DNA of 64,000 bases from Eledone cirrhosa (Eukaryota). Positions 2,448 through 63,253 of this stretch are shown here, in pieces. The stretch is taken from positions 126,976,001 to 127,040,000 of the forward strand of contig OZ024740.1 in the NCBI GenBank assembly GCA_964016885.1. The letters are read 5' to 3'. The notes below the pieces were generated by a model. It saw only the letters and a program-made list of their open reading frames with translations. It had not been told where the DNA came from and searched no databases. Each line of letters begins with the position of its first letter. The stretch's first letter is position 1. The translations under genes and the position numbers were made by a program.

Positions 2448-5400
2448 TCATCTTCCCTGTTCAATCCAAACATTGCCCTTCATGGTATATTTAATAACGT
2501 ATTTGATAGATTTCACGGAAGAGCACACCTCTACGTTTATGTGGCTGTTAAACAGTTTTAACAGTTTCATATTGTAGGGAACCACCCATTCCGAAGTTAT
2601 ATTTCGGTTTCCCACTCCTTCTTGGTGCCCCTCAAATCCTCCCATTCCTGGAGACCGTCTTCTGTACACAGGATAAGAGTCCTCCCCACACAATGTATAT
2701 TCATTGAAAGGCTTAGGGTACCGCTTACTGCACGTTCCATCTTTCCAGCACGGCTAATTGTTAAAGCAATCTGGACCGTGGATCATGTGCTTCAGCACCA
2801 ATTTATGACCCTCTGGGTCTTTGTTTGGACCTGGTATTTCGGCTTGAACAAATTTATCATATTCCTGCGGTCTGGGCTTGGAGGCTTCATTGAGCCATAG
2901 CAAACAGTGAACATGAGGAAGACATCGCTTTTCATATTCGACTGTCAGAATGTAAGTTATGCACTTGCCAAATAGGTCATCTGCTCTAGTAAGATACTTT
3001 CTTAACAGTTTCCGCTTCAGGTCAATCAAATACTCTGGCAATTAAATCTGGCCTATCATGTGGCTTCTGATTCAGGAATAAGTTTTGCCGGATTTCAGGC
3101 CAGTTTGGATTGCATGTTATTGTGATGAAGAACGAAGGATTGCCGTACTTCCGTATGTACATCATGGCATCCTGGCATCGCTCCATCATATATCTCGGTC
3201 CACCGACAAATGTGTAAGAGAGTATGATTCGCCTGCCGACATTGCGAAAATCGTAATCATCATTCAATGCGTCAGTAAGGCCTTTGTCTGTTGTAGATCG
3301 CAATGATGTTTGATTCATTCGGATGTATTGCAGCCTATCTCCTTCAATCTTCCCCGCCATGTCAACCAAATATTGCTGAAATAAACGACCGCCTCTGAGA
3401 AGTTGGTTGAATTCATTCTCATGGTTCATTATTCGATAGGCATAGTAGCGCATTGGCGTCAACTTCTTGTTGTTGCTCATTAACAGCTCATGATGCTATC
3501 CGTCATCGCCAGAACAAAAGCAAAACATAGAACATACTGCAAACTCTTGTAGGACCGATGGGACTCTGAAATTATTTGCAATTGTCCGCTTTTTTCTTTC
3601 AACACAATGTGCCGTGCTTTTGCTTGAAGTTCGGTGCTGTTTTGTATAATAACGGCAACTTCGTTTGCAGTTTGTGCATTGAATCTTCTCTCATGTTCCA
3701 TTGCTGATCTCCTATCAGGATCAATAATAATCGAAGCTTCGCGAATATTTTTAATTTGTTCTTTTGCCATTCGAAATGATGCAACGTAAGGGTTATATTG
3801 TCTGAGTATTATTTCCAATAATTCAACTATGTCGCGCTGAATGCCATCGTTATGGAGTATCCTGATCCTCAAATCAACACTATTCTGAGGATCCAAGAAT
3901 TAAATTTGAAGAAATTGAGGTTGTTCGTTGGGATTAAGGGATCAGGAACCAGTGTAATGGTGAATTTGACCATGAATAACGATAGAAGGATTCCATCCAC
4001 ACCTTGAGGAACGAACTTCTTCGGCCCCAAAAGATGTCATTTGGAACAGGCAGTTGTATTGTCTGAGGTTCTTCCTGAACTCGTTTGCCCTAGGTTGATC
4101 ACTACTAAATAAATTGTGAGTTCCTGGGGGTAAATGCTGCAAATTCACCAACCTGACCTTTCAAATTCATACAGCAAAAGTTAGCAGTTTCACGATGAAA
4201 ACGCATTGCATGACAACAGACAGAGATCTTATTCATCTGTCCAACATCAGCAGAGAGGTCACGTCGTTGAACTGTCCTTGCTCTATCCCTAATGTTTTGT
4301 TGGCAAAACGTTCAGTACTCCGAGCGTCCGATTCATGGTCTCTCCTTCGTCTGTTCCGCCTGACGCTCAGGTCTCCGACCATCCGATTCATGATATCTCC
4401 TTCTTCTGTCTCCTTCCCTCTGTTACACCTGACGCTCAGCTCTCCGGCCATCCGATTCATGATCTCTCCTTCTTCTGTCTCTTTCCCTCTGTTCCCCCAG
4501 ACGCTCTGTTCTCAGACCATCCGATTCATAATCTCTCCTGCTTCTCTCTCATTCCCTCTGTTCCGCCAGACGTGCAGCCCTTGCTTTATCATTCTCATCG
4601 ATCCTTCTATTCGTATGCCTGCTCCGATCTTGTTGGCATTGAACACTATCTTGTTCACCTACTTGGGCTCTCCTTAGCCGTGCTTTCTTTCCACTATCGA
4701 TAGACCAACCAGATGTTTTCTTTATTCTTCGCCGAGGTTTATTTAAGAATCGAAAATTGTATTCACCTTAGAAAAAATTCCTATTACCTCAACAAATATT
4801 TTTTTTAAATCATCATTTAGAAATATTTAGAATAATGAAAATATTGTCTGTTTAAACAACTCATATTTTTCAAATCATATTCACTTAAAACATACTTATT
4901 AATAATTAAAATATTCTGTTTAAATAAAGCTGAAAATAATTCGTATTTTTTAAGTCATATTCATTTAAGTGTATTTTTTAAATATGCCAAGAAATAATTT
5001 TTCCACCGTATTCACTTGAAAATAATTTTTAAAAAATGAAGATATTGTCTGTCAATAAAGCTATTTGTGAAATCAAATTCACTTTAAAATATTTCTAAAT
5101 AATTGATATATTCTTTTTACCAAAAGCAAAAATATAAACACCTCCTTTTTAACACCAACTGGTATTTTTCAGTGATATCTACTTAATGCTATTCTGTTAA
5201 TTAAAATATCGTCTGTTTAAATAAAGCTCAAATATAGATACTTGAAGTACAAACAACTTCTAGTTTTAAAATCATATTCACTGAGAAATCACTGAAAAAT
5301 ATTTTTTTAAATAAATATTAAAAATATTTCTCGAATGATGAGAATAGGTTATGTCGATTTACATCAAACTTGTTTCATCCCAATTTCAGGGTTACATCAC

Positions 5401-11884: not shown

Positions 11885-13158
11885 GTGGACATGATTGAAA
11901 TATTTGTACTACTTTTGATGAGATTTTATCATATTCTGGTTTAGCATATTATACATTGCCATTTCTACGAATGTTGTTTTATCTGAGATTAGATCATTTT
12001 AGTTATTCCATGAATCAATTCTTCAGAGCCGCCTTGTTTTCGCGTTATCCATTAATGTTTGGTTACAGAAGGTAAGAATTATATCGCTTCAACTCCTAGC
12101 GAGTAGACACAAACTATTGTGGTGGTTGTTTATAGTTGAGTAATGTCCATTTTTATGTTGTTAAATTCTCGTTTATTTGTGTTATTACTGGATCAGGTAT
12201 TTATTGTCTGTTATTATGGAGATCAGGATGTCGACTTTCTAGAAAACGCAAGCTATAATATAGGTATCATATATTGAATGTTGCCAGTCTATGAAGTGCA
12301 TGTACTTGAATTCACAATTGTATTTCGTTTTATAGCATTGGTTTTGACATTCTTCAGCAGTACTAAATATGTTTAAGCATAATATGTTATATTAACTCTT
12401 GAATAAGAAAATATTAATCCGATGAAATTATTATTGGTTTGTATATGCAATTCTATTCAATGAGATTTGTAAATTTTGGTGAGTTCTTATTCAGTGTTTT
12501 ATTTTGAGGCAATACCTTCGCCTTTTAGAAACAAAATGTCTTTAAGTAGGTTGAGAAAGGTATGGAAACGAGGGAAGAAGGGGGGAGGGTATAATCCAGT
12601 CTAAAGTAAGTTGAAAAGCAATACAGAGTGGTAAGATAAAACCTACAGTGAAGGATTGTGATGCATTAAACAGTCTTTCATAAACATTGTAACTTTCACA
12701 GAAAGCTTCATAGTGGTGAGGAAATATTCTATAAGCATATTTATTAAAGTACATAGTAACAGACACAAAATGCATAACTGGTTAAGGGGACGCTCCATTT
12801 AAAGAAAGTTTTAGTTAGGTACTTTCGGGAAGAAATTAGTTGGGAGCGGAGATAGCCAACCGAGAAGTATATTAATAGGAAATCCGTGGGGAATGAAGAT
12901 GATTTCTAAAAAATACGAGGGAAACTTTTAAGGTAGGAGAGGAGATAGATTGACTCTTAATATCTACAGAGCAGATGTGGGTCGATAAGTGCATACGTAA
13001 ATGAATCCAGTGTCCGGCAGGGGTGAGGGTGTTTGAATATAAAAGGATTAAAAGGACGATAGCAGTGAGAATATGATAAATAGAATGTTCAAGCATGCAT
13101 AGGGAGGCATGCTATATACAAAGGTAGCTTGTATATAGCATAAAATTGTTTTTTACAC

Positions 13159-14870
13159 CAATGCTACAGGACCCACGACACCCGGTGGCACAAAATCGGT
13201 TTTTAGACCAAGGCTACAGAACCCACGACACCCGGTGGCACAAACCGATTTTGAAAAACCGAAAATAATCAATCTTTCCAATACAAACCTCTCAGCCCAA
13301 CAAGTAAAAATTCTCCCCAAAGGACTGAAATTCACACCAACACCACAATACGTTAACCTCAATGAGATAAAGGACGATATCTCACACTTCTGTAGAAAAT
13401 TACGTCTCTCAGAGGAATTCTTTGACAAGGAGAATAACAACCAATCAACTGTACGGAATAAAAGCAGCTACAACCCAACAAAAGGTAGAAACAGAGTTCT
13501 GGACACATTTTGTGACCACATAGCTACTTTCCCATACCATGAACTACCGCAACCTAAACCCAAACCCAACACGAGTCGAAGGGAATGGGAGATTATCCAT
13601 GAACTAAAAAACAATACGGACAATGGAAGTACTGTTGTCATAATGGATGCGGAAAAAAAAAAAATTCTATGTTCTCTCTCTTACAAAATACTAATTACTA
13701 TGAAAGAGTAAAAAACTACCAGCAATCAAAAACAATGCGCAGATTAAACACACTGATTTGTCGATACTAGGAAGACTTAACTAAAAAGGAACGCGATTAT
13801 TTAACGCATTTTGAATTCAAAACCAGCAACCTTTACGGATTCCGAAGATCCACAAGTGTAAAACAATTAACGATGCCTGTAAACAATCCATCTCAGCTTA
13901 ATTAACGGCATCAATTACCAATGGAATACATCCAAGATCAACTCCCATTTTCTGGACATCTTGATCTTAAAATAATACACAAATATTGAAACTGACATAC
14001 ACTACAAACCAACAGATTCCAATCAATACCTGCTATTCACCTCCAACCATCCAAAGCACACAAAGACGAACATTCCTTATAACCTATCAAGAATAATTTG
14101 TACAATTGTCTCCAATTATGAAACGCAAAATAAAAGACTTCAAGAATTAAAGGAAATTCTACTCGAAAGACAGTACCCACCATTACTAATAAATAATGGA
14201 ATAGAAAGGGCTAAAGCAATAAACATTGATGAATTATGAAAACAGAACCAAATTCAAGGTGCGTCCAATATTCTATCATATATCTCAACACACAACCCAA
14301 GAAATGCGGAAGCTTACAACACTATTCACAAGAACATCCGACTACTGAAACAAGACCCAATGATGAAAAAAAAACCTTGAAACAAAGTAATCAAAAGCAA
14401 AAGACAACCGAAATCACTGAAAACATTACACACCAATGCCAAATTACTTACCACAAACCCACAACCAATTGTCAAAAAATGTGGTCGCTCTAATTGTGGA
14501 AGCTGCAATCACCTCATTGAAGACAACACGTATACATTTAAATCAGGTCAAAATTTTGATGTAAAAAATCACTTCACTTGCTCATCAAAAAGTCTACTTT
14601 ATGCCATTAAATGTAAAGGATGCAATGAAGATTATATAGGACAAACTAAACTCACACTCAGAAACAGAATGACAGTTCATTGCCAACAATTACGAGATTC
14701 AACCACGAGACATATACCACTAAGCGCATATCTAGAAATATGCGCAAGTAATAAGACACCCAAATTCCAAGTCTTCCCATTTTACCTTTGCACTGACAAT
14801 ACAACAGAACTAATACGAGTAAATAAGGAAAATATGTTTATTCAAAAATAGACCAGCATTAAATATGTTT
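13159..14870 (+). mobile_element. PLE pseudogene: RT with central deletion, Cys linker, C-terminal GIY-YIG endonuclease
   Basis: IINLS..KGLKFTPTP..RKLRL, DNGSTVVIMD, YG-PKIHK, then FLDILI, HYKPTDSNQYL..SNHP, CGRSNCGSC, LLYAIKCKGCNEDYIGQT..RMTVH; several frameshifts; ~49-bp tandem duplication at the 5' end. Confidence 0.9.
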
Positions 14871-15279
14871 TAGTATACATTATGTCAACACCATAACATG
14901 CTAACCATCCAAACAGACACATACACACACACATAACACATTCTACTTTAGAAAATAAAAACCCGATCTAAATAAACCTTAACATACATTTGCGCTGAGA
15001 ATACAACAGAACAAATACGAATAAGTAAGGAAAATATGTTCATTCAAAAATATTCCTGCTAACGGAATCATTTTCCTACACACACACTCAAACACAATAT
15101 ATATATTCTCTTTATCTTAACCTACTAAGCATACAACCACACATATATATATAATACAAAGTTGTAGCTTATGTGATGAAACAACAAAAAAACAAATCAA
15201 AGAGTACCAGGTAACTTACTTTTTCCAATTTGCACTGTTTAGCCCTCTATCCCATTCCATGTTATATATATATGATATG

Positions 15280-15359
<80 letters not shown>

Positions 15360-15401
15360 ATATATATACATATAAGTTATACCTGGTTGAATACAACTTT
15401 G

Positions 15402-15435
<34 letters not shown>

Positions 15436-15744
15436 CAAAGTTGTATTCAACCAGGAATAACTCATATATATATATATTTGTGTGTGTGTGTGTGTGTCTA
15501 TATATATATAGAGAGGATAACAATATATCGTTAAAGGTAATCCGATAAGAGGTTGTGAAAATTATTTATCATTTATCATGGATAGTTTAAGCGTACGGCA
15601 TTGTGTGACTAAACAAGAGGTTTACGTGGATGACGAGTTAATGACTTGACTTGGATTCCTATCTAAGTATATATTGTAGTGATAAAATTGAAAAAGTGAA
15701 GAATAACATGATCAACAGTACAAACAAATCTAACAATTGTTTAC

Positions 15745-15844
15745 AGTCTAACAATTGTTTCTATGATAGAGTTGTCTAGAAATTGCTAAACACTGAAGTC
15801 AGTGGCTCTAGATTACATGCAACAATCGTCATTTCTTCAGAACT
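15745..15844 (-). ncRNA. Hammerhead motif with long stem II
   Basis: - strand: agtt-CTGAAGA-aatga...(~70 nt)...tcata-GAAA-caattg-TT-agact. Confidence 0.7.
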
Positions 15845-16050
15845 AAGAGAAAATACAAAATATATGCGTAACGGTAAATTTATAAATTCAAATTGCCACA
15901 TCAGTAATAATATTAATAATAAAGATATAGAGTGAAATAAAGGGAGGGGGTAGATGGAAAGGATGGAGGGAAAAGAAAGGCGAACGAGAAAACGAAAATA
16001 CAGTTATATGCATAACCGGCAAAATTACGAAATCAAACTATCACATCAAA

Positions 16051-16157
16051 AGTCTCTGACAAAATGATAGAGGTTGCATGTGTTTTAATTTGAGTGCCAC
16101 TGCCTTCAGTGTTTAGCAATTTCTAGATATCTCTACCGTAGAAACAATTGTTAGACT
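16051..16157 (+). ncRNA. Hammerhead motif with long stem II (one core mutation)
   Basis: agtct-CTGACAA-aatgatagag...ctctaccgta-GAAA-caattg-TT-agact; perfect stem I agtct/agact. Confidence 0.65.
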
Positions 16158-16235
16158 GTAAATAAATGTCCTTGTTTGTACTGTTGAACATGTTATTCTT
16201 CACTTTTTTCAATTTTATATATATATATATATATA

Positions 16236-16780
16236 CAATATGTTGAAAAGGTAACACACCAGAGATAGATACAGTGCGCCATCAATAAAATAGGGAAAAA
16301 CCACCAGTGTATGGAATATATAACCTATGAAAGGCAGAATATAGACACGATCATTTAAAATATAAATTAAAGCGTAAATAAATACCTCTATAAATATATA
16401 ACACACGTACAAATCCAAAGTGATCCAAAGTGATCTGTTTCGCCCATAAACATGCTGTGACTTCTCTCTCCCACGTGTAGTTGGACGGCCGCTTTAAAAA
16501 TTCTCTTAGTGTTGTCTGAAATGTATAGCCCAACACAAGCTGATGAATCTGGGTTATTCCATTTCCGTCAACAATTCACTGGCGAAACAGATCATTTTGT
16601 ATTTGCACGTGTGTTAAATAGTTATAGAGGTATTTATTTACGCTTTAATTTATATTTTCAATTATCGTGTCTATATTCTGCCTTTGGTGGGTTATAGATT
16701 CCCATACACTAGTGGCTTTTCCCTCTTTTGATGATGGTGCACTGTATCTATCTCTGGTGTTACCTTTTCAAAATATAGTA
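16236..16780. mobile_element. Inverted-repeat cassette (~200-bp arms) with decayed HHR-like motif
   Basis: 16236-16444 is inverted relative to 16581-16780; CTGATGA at 16540 and ggcGAAAcagatc at 16581, the latter mirrored on - at ~16430-16444. Confidence 0.7.
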
Positions 16781-17224: not shown

Positions 17225-18560
17225 AATTTTCCAAATCTTTCTAACTTTGAGATTGGTTATAATACACACATTTTATTTGAATATCTTATTTTATTATTTT
17301 ATCATCTTATTCCTTCTACAATTTTATCATTTTTCTGTTTACTTATTTGCTTATATTATATTATTTTATTTTATTTTATATTATTTTATTTCATTTTACT
17401 CTACTTTACTTCTTTATTTCTTTATTTTATACTTATTTTTTAGTCTTTTACCTTTTCATTTCATTCTATTGTTCTCTTAATTTCTTTTTTTTTAATTGTT
17501 TTATTATTTTTTATTTTCTTCATTTTATTGACTTTTATTCCTTCATATGCTTGCCCCCCACCACAAGAAATAGTGGCAGGACGGATGCCAACACACACAC
17601 ACAAAACCTTCTAAAATCAGTAGCAGTAAGACTTAAGCTGACTGCAGCACCAACACCAATGCCAACATAAGGGTAGAGGTCAGGTGTACTTAACAATAGC
17701 AAAAACAAACACTACAGATCGCCCCACTTCAGAAAGAATTTCTAAAAACTTTTGACTGAGGAATGCTCTCACAACTGACCAATGGGAGGAGAGGATCTTC
17801 CAAACCTTTCTAACTTTCAGATTGGTTATAACACACACATTTTCTTTGATTATCTTATTTTATTCTTTTAACGTCTTATTCGTTCTACCATTTTATCATT
17901 TTTTTTTGTTTACTTATTTGCTTACATTATCTCCGGTGGATTGGCAGTATCGGTAGAGGGTCGGACGCCATGCTTTCCAGCATAGTTACGTCCCTTTACG
18001 ATCTGAGTTCAAATCCCGCCGAGGTTGACTTTGCCTTTCATCCTTACGGGGTCGATAAAATAAAGTACCAGTAATGCACTGGGTAATTACTGGCCTAGTG
18101 CCTAAAGTAGAAACAATTATCTCATATTATTTTATCTTATTCTATCTTATTTTATTTTATTTTATTTTACTCTATTTTTCTTTATTTTATTCGTATTTTT
18201 TAGTCTTTTAATCTTTTCGTTTCATTCTATTTTTTTTTTTATTATTTATTATTTATTTTTTTTTTTTATTATCTTCATCTTATTGCCTTTTATTTCTGCA
18301 TATGCTTGACCCCCCCCCCCTCCACGCCCCCCAGCACCATCACGACAAATGGTGGCAGGTAGATGCCAACACACACAGGCCCTTCTAAAATCAACAGCAG
18401 TGGGACTTAAATCTGACCCCAGCACCAACACCACTACCAACATAAGATGTACTTAACAATAACAAAAACAACCACTACAGATTGCCTCGCCTCAGAAGGA
18501 ATTTCTATAGACTTTTGACTGAGGAATGTTCTCACAACTGACCAATGGGAGGAGAGGATG
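17225..18560. repeat. ~570-bp tandem duplication; second unit interrupted by a SINE
   Basis: ctttctaacttt..gattggttataa at ~17237 and ~17806; ctcacaactgaccaatgggaggagaggat at ~17768 and ~18531. Confidence 0.85.
17934..18115 (+). mobile_element. tRNA-derived SINE with 8-bp TSD
   Basis: A-box-like tggcagtatcggt, B-box-like gagttcaaatccc; TSD attatctc at 17926 and 18116; seven related copies in the window. Confidence 0.9.
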
Positions 18561-18713: not shown

Positions 18714-19174
<461 letters not shown>

Positions 19175-21084: not shown

Positions 21085-21302
21085 CATATTTCTTATATAG
21101 ACACAAGGCCAACAAATTCGGGGGGGGGGGAGTCGATTAAATCGACCCCAGTGTGTGACTGGTACTTTATGTTATCGACCCCGTATGGATGAAAAGCAAA
21201 GTTAACCTCGGAGGGATTTGAACTCAGATCATAAAGGGCCGTAACTCTATGCTGAAAAGCATGGCATCCGACGCCCTACCGATACTGCCAATCCACCGCC
21301 CT
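21085..21302 (-). mobile_element. tRNA-derived SINE
   Basis: Reverse complement of the 17934 SINE with a longer 3' part. Confidence 0.88.
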
Positions 21303-23366: not shown

Positions 23367-26214
23367 GTTTAACGTCCGTGTTCCATGCTTGCATGGGTTT
23401 GGACGGGAGTTTTCCCACTTGAGGCAAGACTGGTTGTCTTGCTCGCATAGGACTGTCTGGCGGGTTTTCTACAGTTGGATGCCCTTCCTAACACCAACCA
23501 CATTTACAGTGTGGGGCTGGGAGGTTTTTACCGTGTTGCCTACAGGGCCACATTACAGCGTGGATTGTCTGGCAGGTTCTCTACAGCTGGATGCCCTTCC
23601 TAACACCAACCACATTTACAGTGTGCGACTGGGACGTTTTTACCGTGTTGCCTACACGGTCACATTACAGCGTGGACTGTGTGTTTTTTTTTTCGTGACA
23701 CCTACACGATCTCATTTGTTTCGGCCTGGATTTTGTGGCACCAACATAAATTTACATTGAAAGGGGCGGTGTGGATGGGGTGGGGGTGGTGGACGGGGGT
23801 GTATTTTGTTAGAGATGCCTACTGACTGTAGTAGGTTTTACTTTGTATTTAGGTAACGCGGGTCTTCTCTGTTACTGAGTACCGCCAAAGGTCACGGTCC
23901 AGTGACATTGTCTTGGAGAGGTGTAAGTGTGTGAGGTCGGAATTTATCAGCTCGTCCCAGGTTTTTCTGGGTCTGCCTACTCCGTGGCTACCATCTATCT
24001 TTATTGCCCTGCACTTTGTTATACAGCTGTCGTCTTTCATGCGCGTCACGTGACCATACCAACGTAGCCTTCTCTCGAGTAAACAACATCTGATCCCTCT
24101 TATTTCTAATTTTTTCCTTAGTTCGTTTATGCTTTGCCGTTCGCGTATATTACTATTACACATCCAGCGGATCATGCAAGCTTCGTTCCTCTCTAGTCTG
24201 CGTATATCCTCTGCACACAATGTCCAGGTCTCACTGCCATGCAACATTGCTGTTCGTATGCAGGCATCATACAACCTGCCTTTCACTTTTAGGGAGAACC
24301 CTTTAGCAGCTAATAGTGGTATAAGCTCTCTGAACTTTTTCCATCCAGTTCTGACTCTAGCTACTGTACTTTCGGAGCACCCTGCCCCACTGCTGATTTT
24401 GTCACCCAGGTAAGGGAAGCTGTCCACTATTTCTATAGAACCCTCTGCGCAGTTGAAAGAGCTAGTATTTCGTGGGCACTTGCTGCTACTTATTGCACCA
24501 GAGCACCGGCCACATGTAAAATCTGTGTTCTTAGTTAGCTTACCTGTGATCCCACTACATCTTTTATGCACCCATACTTTGCATTTGGGACATAAAATGG
24601 AGTTTCTACCTACGCCTTTCCTACACACTGAGCATGGCCATTTCCCGGAAGGGACCGGGGCCTTATTTTCTTTCCTACAAACTAGAACTTTAGCCTTAGC
24701 CATGTTAATTTTAAGTCCTTTTGATTCTAGGCCGTGCTTCCATGTTTGGAATTTCTTCTCTAGCTCGGCCATTGATTCAGCTATGAGCGTTAGGTCATCT
24801 GCGTATAGGAGTTCCCATGGGCAGCCGGTCTTGAACTCCTCTGTTATAGCCTGAAGAGCAATAATGAATAGTAGGGGGCTAAGAACAGAGCCCTGATGGA
24901 CACCAACTTTTACGCTAAACTCTTCACTATATTCGTTGTTAATTCTAACCTTGCTGACTGTTTCTTTATACATGGCCTGTATAGCTCTCACAAGCCATTC
25001 GTCAACACCTAGTTTTCTAAGAGCCCACCAGATAATGGAACGGGGGACTCTGTCGAAGGCTTTCTCCAAGTCGACAAAGGCTAAGTATAGGGGTTTACTT
25101 TTAGCTAGGTACTTCTCCTGTAGTTGTCGTACAATGAAAAGAGCGTCTGTGGTACTTTTGCCTGACACAAACCCGAACTGCATTTCATCTAGATCGATTC
25201 TCTCTCTGATTAGTTGCACTATTACTTTTTCCGTGACCTTCATGACCTGGTCGATTAATTTAATCCCTCTATAGTTACTCCTATCTAGGGCGTCTCCTTT
25301 ACCCTTGTAACAGTTAATGATGATGCTGCTACGCCAGTCCTTCGGAACAACCCCATTCTGTATGACGTGGTTTACTATCCGGGTGACCATGGTGTGTCCC
25401 ACCGTTCCAGAGGCCTTCAGCATCTCAGCGACTATTTCCGAAGGCCCAGCCGCCTTACCCGTCTTCATATCTTTGATCGCCTTACTTATTATACTACCTT
25501 CAACTAACACTGCTGGTCCCTCTATTGGATCGATCTGGGGGAGACTATCCTTCTCCCATTTATTCTCCTCATTTAGTAGCCTCTCGTAGTGACACTTCCA
25601 AGCGACCTTCTTATCAGCGTCAGTGATGGCGAGTACGCCATCATCATTTAGTACACACTTCTCCCCAATAATATCACGGTTTTCCTTGACACATTGCCTA
25701 GCAATCCTGAACACCTCACGTTTTTGGTCATCGCGTTGTAGAACATGCTTGAACTTTCTTTCCTCTGCTTCCCTTCTTGCAAAGTACACTTGTCTCCTAG
25801 CTTCCCTCCTGGCCACTTGATAGTCTTCTCTACTTCCCCCATCCCGCCATATTTTCCAAGCCTGCTTTTTGGCCTTAATCGACTCCTCCACCTTACTGTT
25901 CCACCACCATGTTACTCTCCTCCTGCCTATAGGCCTGCTCCGGCCACAGACTTCGTCTGCCGCCATCAGCAGGTTTGCTTTCAGGAATTCCCACTGTCCC
26001 TCTATATTGTCCGACTCTAAATGCTCTTCCTTACTGTCGAAAGCGTCAAGTATTATGCTTTGAAATTTATTTCTGGCTGTGGGGTCCTTTAGCTTCCATA
26101 TTTTTCTCCTGAGGATAGTCCTCTTCTGCTGTCGAGTACATCTCGTCCTGACTATGAGGTCGCTAATTATCAGTCTATGTTGGGAGGTGCATTCTTCATG
26201 GGGGAGGGATTTAG
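23335..26214 (-). mobile_element. Young 5'-truncated RTE-type LINE with (TGA)n tail, inserted in (TA)n
   Basis: Tail (tca)n at 23335-23367; 3' UTR with ~113-bp tandem duplication (23450-23682); uninterrupted ORF; probable TSD (TA)n-TCATC on both sides. Confidence 0.95.
23849..26214 (-). CDS. LINE ORF: end of APE endonuclease, reverse transcriptase with PHD-type finger insertion
   Basis: 705-aa ORF with NYRGIKL, QFGF, FVDLEKAFD, GVHQGSVLSPLLF, LYADD, FPYLG, RRLRWYGHV, GRPRKTW. The frame stays open upstream to the truncation (EECTSQHRLII = APE C-terminus), so there is no true start codon. Confidence 0.92.
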
Positions 26215-26334
26215 TGTATATATATATATATATATATATATCATCGAAATATATATAGCAGTAAATAAAGGATTATGAGTTCATGCAATTGACTTATGTT
26301 TCGTCACTATATATATATATATATGATGATGATG

Positions 26335-26726: not shown

Positions 26727-26849
26727 GGAAGAGAGGGAGGGAGAGAGAGTTTGAGTGTATGTAAAAGAGATATACAGCCCTTGTGTGTAGTCCCTTGCAA
26801 TTCACCAAATTTATCGGTTAATTTATCAAAACAATATGTATATATATAA

Positions 26850-27036
26850 CTGTTTCTACTTTAGGCACAAGGCCAGCAATTACCCAGTGCATTACTGGTA
26901 CTTTATGTTATCGACCTCGTAAGGATGAAAGGCAAAGTAAACCTCGGCGGGATTTGAACTCAGACCGTAAAGGGACGAAACTATGCTGGAAAGCAGGGCG
27001 TTAGACGCTCTACCGATACTGTCAATCCATCGCCCT
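26850..27036 (-). mobile_element. tRNA-derived SINE
   Basis: Reverse complement of the 17934 SINE. Confidence 0.9.
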
Positions 27037-27150
27037 TACATATATATATTGAACACATTCAGTAAGCATTTATGAAGTCATTTTTACAAACTGTGCGTAT
27101 TAACCCCCTACACACATATTCACATACACACACACATACTCGCACGCACG

Positions 27151-32000: not shown

Positions 32001-32575
32001 TAATACTAGTATGGTGGGTGTGAAATTTCGTATTTAGTGTGACTAACATTTTCAGTTATCCAATCAGCTTTGAAGAGATTTCCGATGTTTAAACCACATT
32101 CTCTGTGTACTTCTCCATTTTGGAAGGGTTATGGTGTTTCCAAATATGCCAACCTAGACACAGATCTAGGAATTTTGAAAAGTCTCAGGATGCAGATAGA
32201 TGAAACTCACATATCTACCAGAAACTTTCGATACTGGACAAAGCGGCTCCAGTTTCGATAGAACATGCACCAATCATGTAACATGGTTTTGAATGGTGTC
32301 GATCTCAACTTTAAGAATGTGACCTAATGACTGTAGTTTCGAAGACGTCCCTTGCTGTACATGTGGCAGTGGGTATGCATGCTAAGTCAAGGAAATGACG
32401 AAAATCCACCTTGTGTTGCACCCTTATCCACTATTTCAACCGTTGAGGTATTCTTTCTCTCGTTCTGACATTGATGATTTTGGTTATATTTTATTTAAAT
32501 TTGCTCTACCTGAACCACTCAAATCCGCGAGAACAGATCCCCCCCCCCCCGAGGGTTTGAAATGGGACAGCCATG

Positions 32576-32610
<35 letters not shown>

Positions 32611-32660
32611 TAATGAAATGACAGGAGGCTGGATTTGTGTAAATCCTTGAAAGGATTATT

Positions 32661-32719
32661 ATACTATGATCATTTCAATGACCGGGTTCCGTATTCAATC
32701 CGGTGATATCATCAGGTAT
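32661..32719 (-). ncRNA. Type I hammerhead ribozyme, intact core
   Basis: - strand: atac-CTGATGA-tatcaccgg(attgaatacggaac)ccggtcatt-GAAA-tgatca-TA-gtat. Confidence 0.85.
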
Positions 32720-32835
32720 TCGAAATATAATACGTGAATGTAATAGGTAAAATCCATGGGGCTGAAAATCGAGGATCCGAGGGCGACCGCTATCCTCCTC
32801 CTTCAACCTCAGCCAGTCGCCCTCGAATATTTCGA

Positions 32836-32893
32836 ATACCTGATGATATCACCGGATTCATACGGAACCCGGTCATTGAAATGATCATAGTAT
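32836..32893 (+). ncRNA. Type I hammerhead ribozyme, intact core
   Basis: atac-CTGATGA-tatcaccgg(attcatacggaac)ccggtcatt-GAAA-tgatca-TA-gtat; stem I atac/gtat; palindromic stem III. Confidence 0.85.
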
Positions 32894-33084
32894 AATAAAC
32901 CTTTCAAGGATTTAAACAAATCCAGACTCCTGTCATTTCATTATAATATTTAACTTCGTAATAGCACCACCAACTACTAAAACAAAGACGGTTGAACTGC
33001 TTTACGTTGAGTACTCTCTATATTATTACATTACGATTGACCATACGGAATTGACCAGCTCTATCCAGTGGTGAACCTCAAACC

Positions 33085-33567
<483 letters not shown>

Positions 33568-33971: not shown

Positions 33972-34449
33972 GATGGCTGCCCCTCGTTATCGGCTATGGC
34001 CATTGCACTATATACCACTATTAATAATCATTAACTAATTCTATCGTGCAATGCATGTGCGTGAAGATATTTTTAAAAATGAGGTAAGACTATGCACTGA
34101 GCCAATCCCACTCTCTGAGCAACAGTAGCTATAACCCGAAAAGAGGAAAATATCAAAATCATCGGTAACTACTGAGCCGCTGGATTTATGTCGGTGTTAT
34201 CCCAGTTTGCTCAGTTGCCTTCTAGAAGAATGCCCTGACGAAGCTAGGGGTCCATCACTCCTAGTGGTTTAACCGCGCGATCGGGTATCCAGTGCAACTA
34301 TTTCTATGTCTCCGTGCATATACATACACATGCACACATACATATACATATATATGTATATATGTATATGTGAATGTGTATGTATATGGACGGAGACATA
34401 GAAATAGTTGGCCTGGATACCCGATCGCGCGGTTAAACCACTGGGAGTA
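33972..34449. repeat. Family K repeat ending in an inverted duplication (34257-34330 vs ~34375-34449)
   Basis: tggtttaaccgcgcgatcgggtatccag is mirrored by ctggatacccgatcgcgcggttaaacca. Confidence 0.85.
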
Positions 34450-36843: not shown

Positions 36844-38129
36844 ATAATGAAATGTCTTCAAATCTTTGATATGAGGGAAGAAAAATATCGATGTTCAATC
36901 ACTAGAGTTTTGTTCCCCATATGAAGATTCACAGCAGCCAAAACACGCCAACTGCTATAGTCATCAGTCAGGATCATAAATCTATCAAGTCTCTATCTCT
37001 CAATAGCTGTAAAAGTGGCTGGACAGGTCTAATCTCAGCATCAAATCTGTAGAATTTCGGTTGGTCACAATTAGTGTGAGTGAGTACACACACACTCACA
37101 CACACCGACGCGAGGTCAGAGAAAACATATATATAACAACACAGTATGCACCGAAAGTTAGGTTACAAAACAACAAATGTTATATTGGTCAAATCTCAAT
37201 TTTAACGATGTAAATTAGAAAAATTTGGTCAACCACAACCCTATACACACGCAAGTAACTTCCGTTCAACGTTCTGCTATACGTGTATCGATTGAATTGT
37301 AACACCCGTATCTACTAAATAGTGTATGTTTTGGTATATACATATCCATGTGTAGAGCAAGTAGTCAGCTCGTATCGAACTCTGTATGTGCCGTTGTCCC
37401 GTTGGGAATTTGAGTCCCCGAGTCTGTGCGTTCAAGCACCCGCCATGTAGGTCACCAAGGGGCTCCATGTAGGATTGGGTATTCGAGTTAAGGTGTCAGT
37501 GTGTGCGTTTTCTCGTCATATGGGCCCTCGGGCTTTTGAGATAAGTTTGGAGTGGTGAAGGTGTGTTACCCAACACAAAATAAAATAAAATAACAAAACC
37601 CCGAGGATTTGTGTAAGCCCATTGATGGCGTGTAAGTAGTATTGCCCATTCAGCAATCGTGAGCACTCCATGGTTAGAGGATCACAGGCCAACAACCTAG
37701 TGTAGTATTCATCTGATAAGATCGTGACTAGTCATAACTGTGGGAACTCCGTGTCTAAAGAAATCGGGTACTGTCTGTAGAATTATGCATAAGGAGCGTA
37801 ATCTGTCTTAACTGAGTGTAAAATACATCTAACTATTTACTAACTGAGAGAACTCTATGGTTAGTGTATTCTAAAGTAATGGGGAATGCGCGTAATTGGT
37901 CTTAACTGAGTGTGTAATTGTTCTAACTATTTACTAACTCGGTATTTTTAGGTAATGGTAAATGTGCACTCAGCTGTGAGAACTCTGTGGAAACATACCG
38001 AGTACTGTGAGTAAGTACGCAAACAATCTTAGCCGTCTACTACCTGAGTGTGTGATTGTCTATTTTTTGCTAATTGAGAGAACTCTATGTCTAAGATAAA
38101 AAGCGTGGAGTTAGTGGTAGGTTACTTTC

Positions 38130-40240
38130 TAAAAATCCTGAGGAAGATTTTCGAGGTTCTATGCTGGCAGGTGTTGAAAAAGTCCGCTCTCCTATTGATT
38201 AGTAGGGGGCCGCCTATAATTATATTAAAGGTTTCAGCTATACATAAATTACAAACGCCCATATGGCTGGGCTGAGCAAATTATGGACCAGAATAAGGAG
38301 TGCTCTATATTCTGTTGTTTAAGCTTCCAGACTAATTCAGAAAGCTCCGTGCTATGTTTTTATCTAATCTATTAAAGGTATAGCGGTGATTGTACCATCT
38401 ATCCTTAAATTTATGTGGCAGTCGCCCCAACATACATGAACGTTCTATCTAAAGTGGAGACCTTACAGTCATAGACTACGTTTTTGGTGAGGCATTTCCC
38501 AGCCAAGGGCAAGTAGTGGTGTTCCTGCAATTACGTTTTCTGCTACCGACCGGGGTGGTTCCTGAGGAACCACGGTACCTCTGGTGTCGTGTCTCAGTCC
38601 TTGTCTGCACTATCTGTAAGTTCCCAGGTGTTGGAGTGGCCCGACTCACCTCACACGTATGAGTCCGTTCATGCATAGAATTGCCATTAGTTCTGCCATG
38701 CCTCATCCCGCCCTGAGCTGTCCTGAGTCTATTATAATTCATCTTAGCTATATTCTGAGCTATGTTACTGGTTGTGGAGTAGGACAGCTTGATGGTATTC
38801 CTATTGAATATTTTATAGTATTTGTGTGATCTAGAGAAGCATTTGTCTAAGGCCCTAAAGAAAAGCTTAGCTATACTAGTGGTCAGGCCGGTGGAGTATG
38901 GGGCGTTGTACCACAGGATTTTTTTGTTCCAATGACTCTTGTTCTTATCATCTATACTAGTGTTACCTTCCTCCTTGTTTGCTACTGGTCTATTAGAACT
39001 GACAACTGCCTGTGGGTCGATGATGCCCCGAGGTGTCCAGGTGGTGTTCGGAATCGTCCCAAGTCTCTGGATCGGTGTACCCCGTGCAATTATTGGAATT
39101 ACTCTCGATGGCCGGGGTTATATCCACTATGCGCCTACTTTATTTTTTTTACCTCTACCCGACCTCTGTTCTATTTTACGTTCAATGGTTGTTTTATCAG
39201 CTCTACAATTAAGGTTACAATTAAAGTTGCCGCTGGTTGTACGGTGCTCGGACACGGTATTTGTACCTGGGTGGTTATTCTCATTGGTACCGTCGTCATT
39301 GGGACTAGGAGGCAATACAACATGAAGTCTATATTAATACTCCTTCGCCTCCCGCCTGCTGTTAACTAAAGTGTGACTAGTTTGGCCTAAGCTACGCAGA
39401 CAATATTTCTACTACTACCTAATGGACGTTTGAATGAGATTCCATCGCTATGCCCCGCGCGTTCCAGGGCCCTATTATCGTAATTTGAGATCCTATCGAA
39501 TGTATCTTCATTGGAAATAGTCCTGAAATTCTACTAGAGACGCTTTTTGTAATACCGTTAGTGACTATTCTAGGGTGGTTCGGTTTTGCGTTGACATAAT
39601 TTAAATTCTCGTTGGGTTAGTGGTAGGGTTGGAAAAGTCCTGAATTGAGGTTAACTGTAACATCTAGAAACTTACGATCTTCAGGTTCTTCTTCAAACAC
39701 TATACTTAAGTCTATGTTGTTGAAGAATTTGCTTAGTTCTTTCTTCACCCTCTCTACCATACTATTATTATGATACGACACAGTAAACAAAACGTCGCCA
39801 CGGTAAGCCTCACCTCCCAAGTGAGGCATTTCCACTCCAAGAAAGTCGAGGATGTAGAGGCCCACCAGATGCGTCACCTGGGCCGAATCCGTGGATCCCA
39901 TGGTGATGTCAAAATTGTCCGGCCAGTCACTCCTAGTACACAAGTCTCCGTTGAACGCAATTACGGTCTTTCTAGCTAGGAGAACAATGTTAATTTCTTC
40001 AGATGTAAGGTCGGTGTGTAAGCTAGGAAAGTGTAGGGCCTTACCTAGAAGCGTTGGAGAGATCGAAGATTAGTAGTTAGAGATATCAAACTGTATAAAC
40101 TTAGTGCGATTTCTCAAACCAGTTAATTACATCACTAGTTCATGATCATAATTTAAGCTTCGGTCTCCTAACTAGAGTGGGGATTATTTCGTCAAGGATG
40201 TTTTTACACACGATTCCTATGTCCGATTTCGAAGGGGCTA
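38130..40240 (-). mobile_element. 5'-truncated PLE, RT plus C-terminal GIY-YIG, degraded
   Basis: SKSDIGIVCKNILD, FIQFDISNY, FDITMGSTDSAQVTHLVGLYIL, YRGD (YRDD), FLDVTVNL, NHP, ILWYNAPYS, KIFNRNTIKLSYS, NCR..CP, FKDRWYNH. Confidence 0.9.
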
Positions 40241-41340
40241 GGTATTAGAGAAAAACACAATGGAAAGCATCCAGCAAATAGCTAACTCCATCCACCACAG
40301 TATTAGAGTTACTATAGACTACCCAAGCAAACACCCCAACCATCGATTACCTGTACTAGACACAGAGCTCTGGATAGATACCATTAATAACACAAAAACA
40401 AATCCTCAATTCCAATTCTGCCAAACCCATGACTTCCAAATATCTGATCCACCGAAACTCAGCTGTTTCGACCATACCAAATACCAGAGTGTAATGTTCA
40501 TCGATACAACCCCTAGAGGTGAATTAGCTTACAAATTTAGAAGGACCCTAGATAAACATAAACACAATATTAAGATAGTAGAAAGACCAGGTACCTACAT
40601 AAAAACACTTATTAGCAATACATACCCTTTTCAATGACATCCCCTGTATAGATAAGAAATGTATAATCAGTAAATTAAGCCCCCATATTAACTGTAAAAC
40701 TAGAAATGTAGTATATAGCATAAGATGTACTGAAGGACAATGTAGAGATAAAAATATAGTGTACATAGGTAAGACAGCTCGTAGTATAGGGGAACGGATA
40801 AATGAACACTGGCGAGACCTTCAACATAGTAAAGAATCATCTGTACTCTATCAACATGCTAAAATAGAACATAAGGGTAAATTAGTGAACATAAAAATGA
40901 AAATAGAATCTACACACAGAAAAGACGCAATGTTTAGACAAATCACAGAGGCAATAAACATAAATGAACTCCAACCAAAATTAAATAGAAAACATGAATG
41001 GAACAGCAACATCACAACTTACAATTAAGGACAAAATGAAAACACATACGCACATAGAACAAACAACCAACCAGTAATATGTAAATAAACAAATAAATAA
41101 ACAAATATAAACACACACGGACACCCGGATGTAACACATGCACAAACTAAGTACTCAACACACACACAAAAACAAGATGGCGTAGAACAGAACAAAGGAG
41201 AGGCACAAAAACAAAGAAAAGAATCCCCAGTCACTGAAGAGGTCACAGAATGTGTGACGAAAGAACATTGACAATATATAAACAATCATCTGGTTGTGGA
41301 ACCAACCATCCTCCTGAAAATTTATAAATTCCTAAATTTA
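40241..41340 (+). mobile_element. 5'-truncated, internally deleted PLE (RT end, GIY-YIG, pLTR)
   Basis: TIDYPSKHPNHRLPVLD; CKTRNVVYSIRC..YIGKTARSIGERINEH..RQITEAINI..LNRKHEW; HHR motif in the 3' repeat. Confidence 0.9.
41230..41272 (+). ncRNA. Minimal hammerhead motif in PLE pLTR (cleavage site mutated)
   Basis: gtca-CTGAAGA-g-gtcac(agaatgt)gtgac-GAAA-gaac-AT-tgac. Confidence 0.7.
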
Positions 41341-46085: not shown

Positions 46086-46237
46086 AGTTAAACGAACCAG
46101 CTCACAATAATACTGGCTTACTTATCTTTAAAACGACATCAACATTTCAGTGCATAATGTTGAATAACAGCGTAAATAGAACAAACTTACAGGAGCAAAG
46201 TGAACCACGTGTTGACAGACTGAACCATAACAATGAT

Positions 46238-46428
46238 AATAATTGTTTCTACTTTTGGCACAAGGCCAGCAATTATCCCAGCGTATTGCTGGTACTTTAT
46301 TTTATCGATCCTGTAAGGATGAAAGGCAAAGATAACCTCGGCGGGATTTGAAATCAGTCCGTAAAGGGACGTAACTGAGCTGCAAAGCATGGCGTCCGAC
46401 CATCTACCAATTCTGCCAATCCACCGCA
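46238..46428 (-). mobile_element. tRNA-derived SINE
   Basis: Reverse complement of the 17934 SINE. Confidence 0.9.
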
Positions 46429-46434
46429 CTCACT

Positions 46435-46720
46435 ATAATATTAATAATAATGATATTTCTTTTATTGTAGGCAACTAGAGGTTGAAAACACAGGACAATA
46501 AAATAGACAAAGACAATGGGAATTTCCATATAATGAAATGTGTAAACAAAGCGAACGGATAACGGAATACCAGAATTTCCAATTGCTTATATACGTATGT
46601 CAAATGTAGGCCCACTCATTGGGGCCATGCTTATTAAATTCAAGCACCTTATACGAAATGAACTGAGGACAGCATTTCCTTCACCATTTTTACCTTTTTC
46701 AAGTGGAATGTGCCTGCATT
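46435..46720 (-). mobile_element. Probable 3' end of a Tx1/L1-like LINE with (TTA)n-like tail
   Basis: - strand remnant KMVKEMLSS..MAPMSGPT, T-rich UTR, aataaag then a tta repeat. Confidence 0.45.
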
Positions 46721-62852: not shown

Positions 62853-63064
62853 GGTTTCTTATATAGGCACAAGGCTATCAATTTTGGGGGAAAGGAAAGT
62901 CGATTAAATCAACCCCAGTGCGTAATTAGTACTTTATTTTATCGACAGTGTAAGGATGAAAGGCAAAGTTAACCTCGGCGGAATTTGAACTCAGATCATA
63001 AAGGCCGTAGCTATGTTGCAAAGAATGGTGTCCAACTTTCTATCGATACTGCCAATCCACCGCC
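62853..63064 (-). mobile_element. tRNA-derived SINE
   Basis: Aligns with 21085-21302. Confidence 0.9.
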
Positions 63065-63073
63065 TTCCATATA

Positions 63074-63253
63074 ATAATTGTTTCTACTTTTGGCACAAGG
63101 CCAGCAATTATCCCAGTGTATTACTGGTACTTTATTTTATCGACCTCGTAAGGATGAAAGGCAAAGATAACCTCGGCGGGATTTGAACTCAGAATGACAA
63201 GGGCCGTAACTCTATGCGTCAAAACATGGCGTCCTACCCTCTACCGATACTGG
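63074..63253 (-). mobile_element. tRNA-derived SINE, slightly 5'-truncated, in tandem with the previous one
   Basis: Aligns with 46238-46428. Confidence 0.9.

Follow-up and report, generated by a model that had tools for sequence, protein, structure and literature searches.

A 481-bp segment of the Eledone cirrhosa genome is very probably a single insertion made by Penelope-like element (PLE) machinery, probably that of the Hydra clade. The segment lies at approximately positions 32607–33087 of the 64,000-nt stretch that was analysed (contig OZ024740.1, here termed the window). It appears to consist of two 5′-truncated copies of the 3′ end of a repeat, fused head to head within a (TA)n microsatellite, and each copy carries a hammerhead ribozyme motif that is predicted to be weak and dimer-dependent. 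The linear structure of the repeat family, the join between the two copies at 32826/32827, the two ends of the family, the (TA)n flanks and the hammerhead motif are read directly from the sequence and from public reads. Since no reverse transcriptase or endonuclease open reading frame was linked to the family, its membership in the PLEs is likely but not proven.

The segment lies between two microsatellites that were delimited with TRF and are assigned to no strand: (TA)15 at 32577–32606 and (AT)233 at 33088–33553, likely the left and right halves of the insertion target. The end of the first at 32606 and the start of the second at 33088 set the limits of the insertion; a target-site duplication is unreadable within (TA)n. 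Two inverted arms, 32607–32728 and 32827–32947, agree at 117 of 122 aligned columns; the other five comprise 4 mismatches and 1 gap. The 341-nt palindrome has a predicted fold with z = −25.7, and none of 100 shuffled sequences folds as well. Both copies point outward. The left copy (32607–32826, minus strand; placed by X4 contig 17 and X3 contig 10, described below) shows, in this order, a GC-rich hairpin, a linker of about 50 nt, the hammerhead and a 3′ end without a tail. The right copy (32827–33087, plus strand; placed by read depth and by pieces reaching to 33075) has a deeper 5′ truncation than the left, and it has a one-sided tail of about 140 nt (32948–33087, plus strand), where reads define the tail and 33076–33087 are assigned by position alone. 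The original prediction had ended the element at 32947, but family sequence runs to at least 33075 and the (AT)n begins at 33088. Six-frame translation shows no open reading frame in either copy, and a BLAST search of the 64-kb window with the element yields only the self-match.

The structure of the family was obtained from four public runs (termed X1, X3, X4 and X17), which were aligned to positions 32380–33075 at 82% likeness. Twelve of 19 listed public runs, from nine studies, contain part of the stretch, and none contains half of its words. The family occurs in runs of several organisms, all four aligned runs among them. These data show that the family is linear: the GC hairpin is followed by the hammerhead, by one end at about 32949 and by an optional tail. 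The palindrome is specific to this locus and is not the repeat unit of the family. On the plus strand, family sequence agrees with the window up to 32826 and then departs from it; ahead of 32827, the family sequence is that of the minus strand of the spacer. X4 contig 17 runs from 32823 to 32697 on the minus strand and then from 32859 to 33075 on the plus strand, and X3 contig 10 extends 177 letters past 32823 into a sequence unlike the right arm. Position 32736 is joined to 32827 on opposite strands in 115 X17 reads and in one X1 contig, and loose ends ahead of 32827–32831 resemble the minus strand of the spacer. Thus the contigs and loose ends of the four runs show the spacer, the GC hairpin included, to be the upstream sequence of the left copy, and they show that the two copies meet 5′ to 5′ at 32826/32827 (a boundary with no strand of its own, where family matches switch strand). 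Neither overlap nor filler is seen between the copies. An interpretation of the spacer as a shared or bidirectional promoter was rejected on account of this placement in the left copy’s upstream sequence.

The 3′ end of the family comes in two versions, one at about 32949 and the other beyond 33075. Of the X17 molecules, 200 terminate at 32950 (depth 258); 205 reads extend past 32949 as loose ends resembling (ATC)n, i.e. into a microsatellite. Many other copies stop at about 32949 and are followed by a microsatellite, and others run on to at least 33075, where the aligned region stops. In X1, the contig depth summed across the hammerhead reaches 4–6 × 10^5, compared with about 3 in the unique left flank; summed contig depth is not a copy number, so that the abundance is read only as “very many”. 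Read depth peaks over the hammerhead, which is the best-kept portion of the family. In the listed part of the variant table (68 further rows lie outside it), 32836–32893 has only two family variants: 32848 A>G, which converts an A-U pair to G-U, and a variant at 32864 in loop II.

Both arms contain a complete type I hammerhead core, i.e. C3 U4 G5 A6 N7 G8 A9, G12 A13 A14 A15 and U16 H17 are present in each, in agreement with the two intact motifs that had been proposed. The right motif occupies 32836–32893 (plus strand), with an AUA triplet and a predicted cut after 32889, the site originally proposed; the left motif occupies 32661–32719 (minus strand), with C3 at 32715 and the corresponding predicted cut after 32665. 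In the right motif, stem I is 4 bp (32836–32839 with 32890–32893), the core CTGATGA is at 32840–32846, and the distal part of stem II pairs accgg (32851–32855) with ccggt (32869–32873). The GAA is at 32878–32880, and stem III is a loopless 8-nt palindrome, ATGATCAT, at 32881–32888. The original prediction was correct in placing a palindrome at stem III next to the AUA, but its extent is 8 nt. The accgg/ccggt pairing was also recognized correctly, but stem II does not begin there: it is separated from the core by two A-U pairs, with a U10.1-U11.1 mismatch on the core side of them and a C-C mismatch on the other. Stem II is thus long and interrupted, with a 13-nt loop. The pairing at N10.1-N11.1 (usually G-C) is absent and a U-U mismatch is found in its place; the motif is therefore filed as a variant, non-canonical one. 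It should be noted that U-U is the best-tolerated mispair at 10.1-11.1 and occurs as a natural variant (PMC3088659), and that, among four triplets in purified ELVd hammerheads, AUA is the slowest (PMC1636495).

The motifs were termed divergent in the original prediction. This holds for their orientation, since they face outward on opposite strands about 125 bp apart, but not for their sequence, which is nearly identical; loop II is the only difference within the motif, and in the left motif it bears a change private to this locus. A strict hammerhead descriptor, composed after the motif was already known, gives one match per strand in the window and none in 150 first-order Markov random windows of 64 kb. 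In the whole 64-kb window no match attains the gathering score of an Rfam family, and the 15 Rfam matches at E ≤ 10 in 32560–33000 include no hammerhead model. Exact-pattern scans give no match in the metagenome contigs or in the viral contigs searched.

The layout of the locus corresponds to published PLE insertions. These are often 5′-truncated with a truncated copy in inverted orientation at the 5′ end, favor microsatellites with a (TA)n bias, and can have a tail of 30–40 bp at one end (PMC8557442). Head to head is the commonest PLE inversion (PMC3846280), and in Schistosoma pairs of minimal hammerheads are found on opposite strands, 100–700 bp apart (PMC4209133). The Hydra clade is defined by protein motifs (RWK, DKT and CxCX5C, with no CCHH; PMC8557442, section 11), and the assignment here is made from features of the RNA and of the target. 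In the supplement of PMC8557442, where 26 rows with one family given twice (25 families) are of the Hydra clade, a U after A9 together with a U before G12 is found in 14 of 25 Hydra families and in none of six Chlamys/PLE-X families, and a preference for (TA)n is given for 26 of 27 Hydra families (File S1). Hydra-clade elements such as Penelope-13_HM, Hydra-1_Ajap and Hydra-1_Obim share with the locus a hammerhead near the 3′ end (C3 is about 110 nt ahead of the first family end at ~32949), the U-U at the base of stem II, a short stem I, a palindromic stem III and (TA)n targets. In Penelope-13_HM, as here, an inverted 5′-truncated copy gives each strand the same hammerhead (PMC8557442 supplement).

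There are also differences. Unlike the Hydra-clade elements, the locus has a stem II that is longer, interrupted and closed by a 13-nt loop, a perfect loopless 8-nt palindrome, a tail of about 140 nt and an upstream GC hairpin, with no linked open reading frame. The motif is identical to no row of the Hydra table in that supplement, Hydra-1_Obim included. It resembles the minimal PLE hammerheads (min-HHR) in being type I, with a stem I of 4–5 bp, a long stem II and a palindromic stem III that implies a dimer; however, the min-HHR consensus (PMC4209133) has a G10.1-C11.1 pair and one bulged nucleotide, and the motif lacks both and has the U-U instead. With the Penelope insertions that have inverted pLTRs and a tail (PMC3846280; for the mechanism of PAc, PMC11167929) the locus shares the head-to-head arrangement, an extension on one side only and an AT-rich target. 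In contrast to these, it has no open reading frame between the repeats (only a stump is present), no palindromic overlap at the join and no readable target-site duplication, and this extension is 3–4 times longer than their tail.

No reverse transcriptase or GIY-YIG sequence linked to the family was found in the upstream sequence covered by reads, which amounts to 30 letters. Read by hand, these give five residues and a stop codon about 120 nt before C3, similar to the approximately 125 nt in Hydra-1_Obim; this is compatible with the end of a Hydra-type open reading frame and proves nothing. The family could be a non-autonomous derivative instead of stumps of a coding element, which would leave the reading of the locus unaffected. 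It was not found in those parts of the octopus and Hydra-clade literature and of the PMC8557442 supplement that were compared, and four short motifs specific to the family occur in that part of the supplement in unrelated places only. The comparison covered this literature, and the family may already have a name in Repbase or Dfam.

The sequence of events at the locus may be envisaged as follows. The endonuclease of the element would nick the AT-rich target, and reverse transcription would then copy the RNA’s 3′ end as far as the GC hairpin. Next, a switch of template or strand would produce the second, inverted copy from the other start site, which would account for the tail. The hammerheads were likely inherited from an active parent, in which they would process tandem transcripts together with a second motif or with the element’s protein.

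A second explanation is that the locus derives from a non-LTR retrozyme, a non-coding unit of 150–450 bp that is amplified via circular RNA and was caught here as an inverted pair. The type I hammerhead, the lack of coding sequence and the very high summed contig depth agree with such an origin, and non-LTR retrozymes likewise are non-coding repeats with a type I hammerhead in animal genomes (PMC7229834); derivation of retrozymes from PLE pLTRs has also been proposed (10.64898/2026.07.22.740005). Retrozymes, however, consist of tandem units of that length with mostly canonical motifs (PMC7229834; 10.64898/2026.07.22.740005), whereas the locus has no head-to-tail repeat and a minimal motif with a 4-bp stem I. 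Furthermore, no joint among those listed leads from the end of the tail back to the start, and the single listed row that goes back represents a short local duplication. A retrozyme origin is therefore considered improbable.

The folding of the motifs was predicted with energies that leave out Mg2+ and tertiary contacts. As a monomer, the right motif gives −4.0 kcal/mol for the hammerhead fold and −14.9 kcal/mol for a misfold, and the left motif gives −1.9 and −12.8 kcal/mol. The misfold pairs the core UGAU with the stem III palindrome, and the hammerhead is about 11 kcal/mol less stable. The probability of the A15.1-U16.1 pair in the monomer rounds to 0. Stem I and the distal part of stem II form with P > 0.9 and stem III is absent; it forms only as the 8-bp intermolecular palindrome. 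Stem I pairing probability was rejected as a sign of the active fold since the misfold retains stem I as well. For the dimer, the double hammerhead has −24.6 kcal/mol (right) and −20.4 kcal/mol (left) and two misfolded monomers have −29.8 and −25.6 kcal/mol, a difference of about 5 kcal/mol, and a dimer folded free of constraints comes out lower than either (−33.9 and −29.7 kcal/mol). These values predict an inactive monomer and a marginal dimer. An intramolecular double hammerhead was rejected on the ground that the motifs are on opposite strands. For the same reason no single transcript of the locus has two sense copies, and only dimers formed in trans with other RNAs of the family are possible.

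The suggestion that transcripts starting in the spacer could self-cleave is thus not borne out by the predicted folds, in which the monomer would be inactive. The suggestion that read-through from either side yields a hairpin of about 120 bp that masks the ribozyme is supported as far as thermodynamics is concerned: RNA of either strand is predicted to fold as one long hairpin (−214 kcal/mol) in which the sense hammerhead is buried. Such a hairpin would be a by-product common to all insertions of this type. Published PLE hammerheads behave in a comparable way. One Schistosoma min-HHR is inactive in monomeric form and cleaves weakly as a dimer (PMC4209133), and the anole PLE hammerhead cuts only when the element’s protein is present and is dispensable for insertion in vitro (PMC11167929). 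An absence of cleavage in both monomer and dimer, which had been named as the refuting outcome, would leave the identity of the element standing, since many PLE hammerheads show almost no activity in vitro.

The palindrome had been described as young, and this is roughly right. The locus shows about 12 private differences in 456 nt (~2.6%, counted by hand from the reads), i.e. 10 substitutions and a loop II change counted as two events; a private difference is a listed place where nearly all reads disagree with the window. The arms differ at five places. At the three outside loop II (32655, 32915 and 32926) the family letter is that of the other arm, which indicates that the arms were likely identical at insertion and have drifted separately. 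The 2 × 45 core and stem positions have no private change where about 2.4 are expected (P ~ 0.09 from a Poisson estimate by hand). As this value is not significant, selection acting on the cores here was rejected; the intact cores lean slightly toward constraint and can be explained without it. The hammerheads at the locus are likely passengers that have undergone about 2–3% drift since insertion.

These data bear on a third explanation, in which the locus is a switch retained by the host under selection, where RNAs initiated in the spacer would cleave themselves and those arising by read-through would enter small-RNA or editing pathways. The long hairpin is real and very stable, both cores are intact, and palindromic repeats can be heavily edited, as a lizard Penelope element is (PMC5625713). 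Against this, the monomer is predicted to misfold, each transcript has only one sense motif, and a young insertion would be compatible with intact cores. Nothing but ordinary family sequence makes up the spacer, which has five private changes, of which the one at 32815 breaks a pair of the GC hairpin, and the window contains other, decaying inverted pairs. A host-retained switch is thus judged a poor candidate, slightly less probable still than the retrozyme. The possibility that the 341 bp move whole as a MITE-like palindromic DNA element fares worse and is very improbable. Long terminal inverted repeats and TA-rich flanks are present, but other copies are linear or joined elsewhere, family sequence extends about 140 nt beyond the right “terminal” repeat, and the 32826/32827 join is crossed by none of the 18 contig pieces listed (1730 more are outside this list). 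An assembly artefact, a fold-back chimera of one copy, can be practically dismissed: palindromes beside long microsatellites are error-prone and in the four runs no aligned read or contig spans both flanks, but the five arm differences, with the family letter in the other arm at 32655, 32915 and 32926, mean that each arm has mutations of its own, which would not arise in a recent chimera.

The interpretation as a PLE insertion leaves a role for the GC-rich hairpin to be considered. This hairpin (32778–32825, minus strand) was noted in the spacer from the beginning and forms in the predicted folds. The folds and the reads place it in upstream sequence of the family, likely the 3′ UTR, about 60 nt upstream of the hammerhead and at the head-to-head join. 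Its stem is 10 bp at the locus and 12 bp with the family G at 32815, and the window’s own join is 1 nt from its foot. Among the loose ends are subfamilies in which the beginning of the stem is retained and the loop is altered. In other copies, seven same-strand joints are listed; one, the short go-back duplication, was left out, and six are read as head-to-head joins. The left break is in the GC hairpin or within about 10 nt of it in five of the six (~32770, 32787, 32823, 32823–28 and 32836), and the remaining joint (32653) is away from it. These break positions were placed by eye from the intervening letters, and their support is slight: three joints come from single contigs, two from 2 reads each and one from 39 reads. 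The sample is also biased, since the hairpin is at the upstream edge of the aligned region, joins within the arms map ambiguously and the likeness setting was low. It is conceivable, though on balance doubtful, that the GC hairpin serves the PLE reverse transcriptase as a conserved stop-and-switch signal and fixes the point of inversion, such that this very abundant family would mass-produce perfect hairpins of about 120 bp. The origin of PLE inverted structures is listed as unresolved in PMC8557442. If the suggestion is true, an inversion set by a hairpin, together with the long tail, would provide a sequence-defined test of how these inversions arise.

The surroundings of the insertion are rich in repeats. 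The window is about 35% GC and contains long (TA)n arrays, a Helitron fragment, a GIY-YIG fragment and an 807-aa reverse transcriptase frame; there is no host-like gene among its 17 open reading frames of at least 150 aa. The 807-aa open frame (23849–26272, minus strand) has RVT_1, with a PHD-finger match inside the C-terminal part, and is LINE-like. It is presumably an RTE element. The Helitron fragment, from the N-terminal part of the helicase (PF14214), is at 3022–3495 (minus strand). A dispersed repeat of about 200 bp has at least seven copies in both orientations, 75–90% alike, at 17934–18133, 18995–19173, 21089–21302, 26828–27050, 46236–46442 and 62855–63252.

A decayed PLE open reading frame at 38125–40241 (minus strand) has Hydra-like motifs, namely a CxCX5C-like linker and a terminal CxH. 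It has 2135 relatives at E ≤ 0.001, and the matching proteins bear DK(T/S), CxCX5C and a terminal CxH; two pieces of this frame gave no match in Pfam. Its matches show that Hydra-like PLEs exist in the genome. The 3′ flank of this frame is unlike the palindrome element. None of 151 Hydra-like proteins (one match and the best 150 of the 2135) ends in a motif that matches the putative terminus of the family, a weak comparison because the query frame belongs to a different family. Pieces of a broken PLE-like open reading frame are found at 13139–15052 (plus strand), with a GIY-YIG domain (PF01541, 14381–14851) and a 68-bp direct repeat (14783–14850 and 14985–15052).

Other inverted pairs are also present. 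An older, outward-facing one at 15685–16215, with 85% column identity, is likely another PLE-type pair; its arms share a GAAA with an 8-nt palindrome, ACAATTGT, and there is a possible stem I, and CUGA-N-GA cores about 80–95 nt upstream are decayed or very distant. The adjoining pair at 16238–16776 has arms of about 190 bp, with a hammerhead-like string from 16540 in the right arm and only the 3′ part of that string in the left arm. Palindromes of 110–236 bp are found at 712–947, 2264–2373, 15360–15477 and 34257–34448, several of them centered on or flanked by TA-rich repeats; a relaxed scan yielded no hammerhead in these four.

The locus is one stump among very many copies, with an architecture that has already been described, and it probably has no special job where it lies; as a locus it matters little. 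The family is of more use. It offers a hammerhead with the U-U of the Hydra type, a tail several times longer than those described and a possible point of inversion defined by a hairpin. If the host edits its RNA heavily, insertions of this type would be a ready source of long double-stranded RNA.
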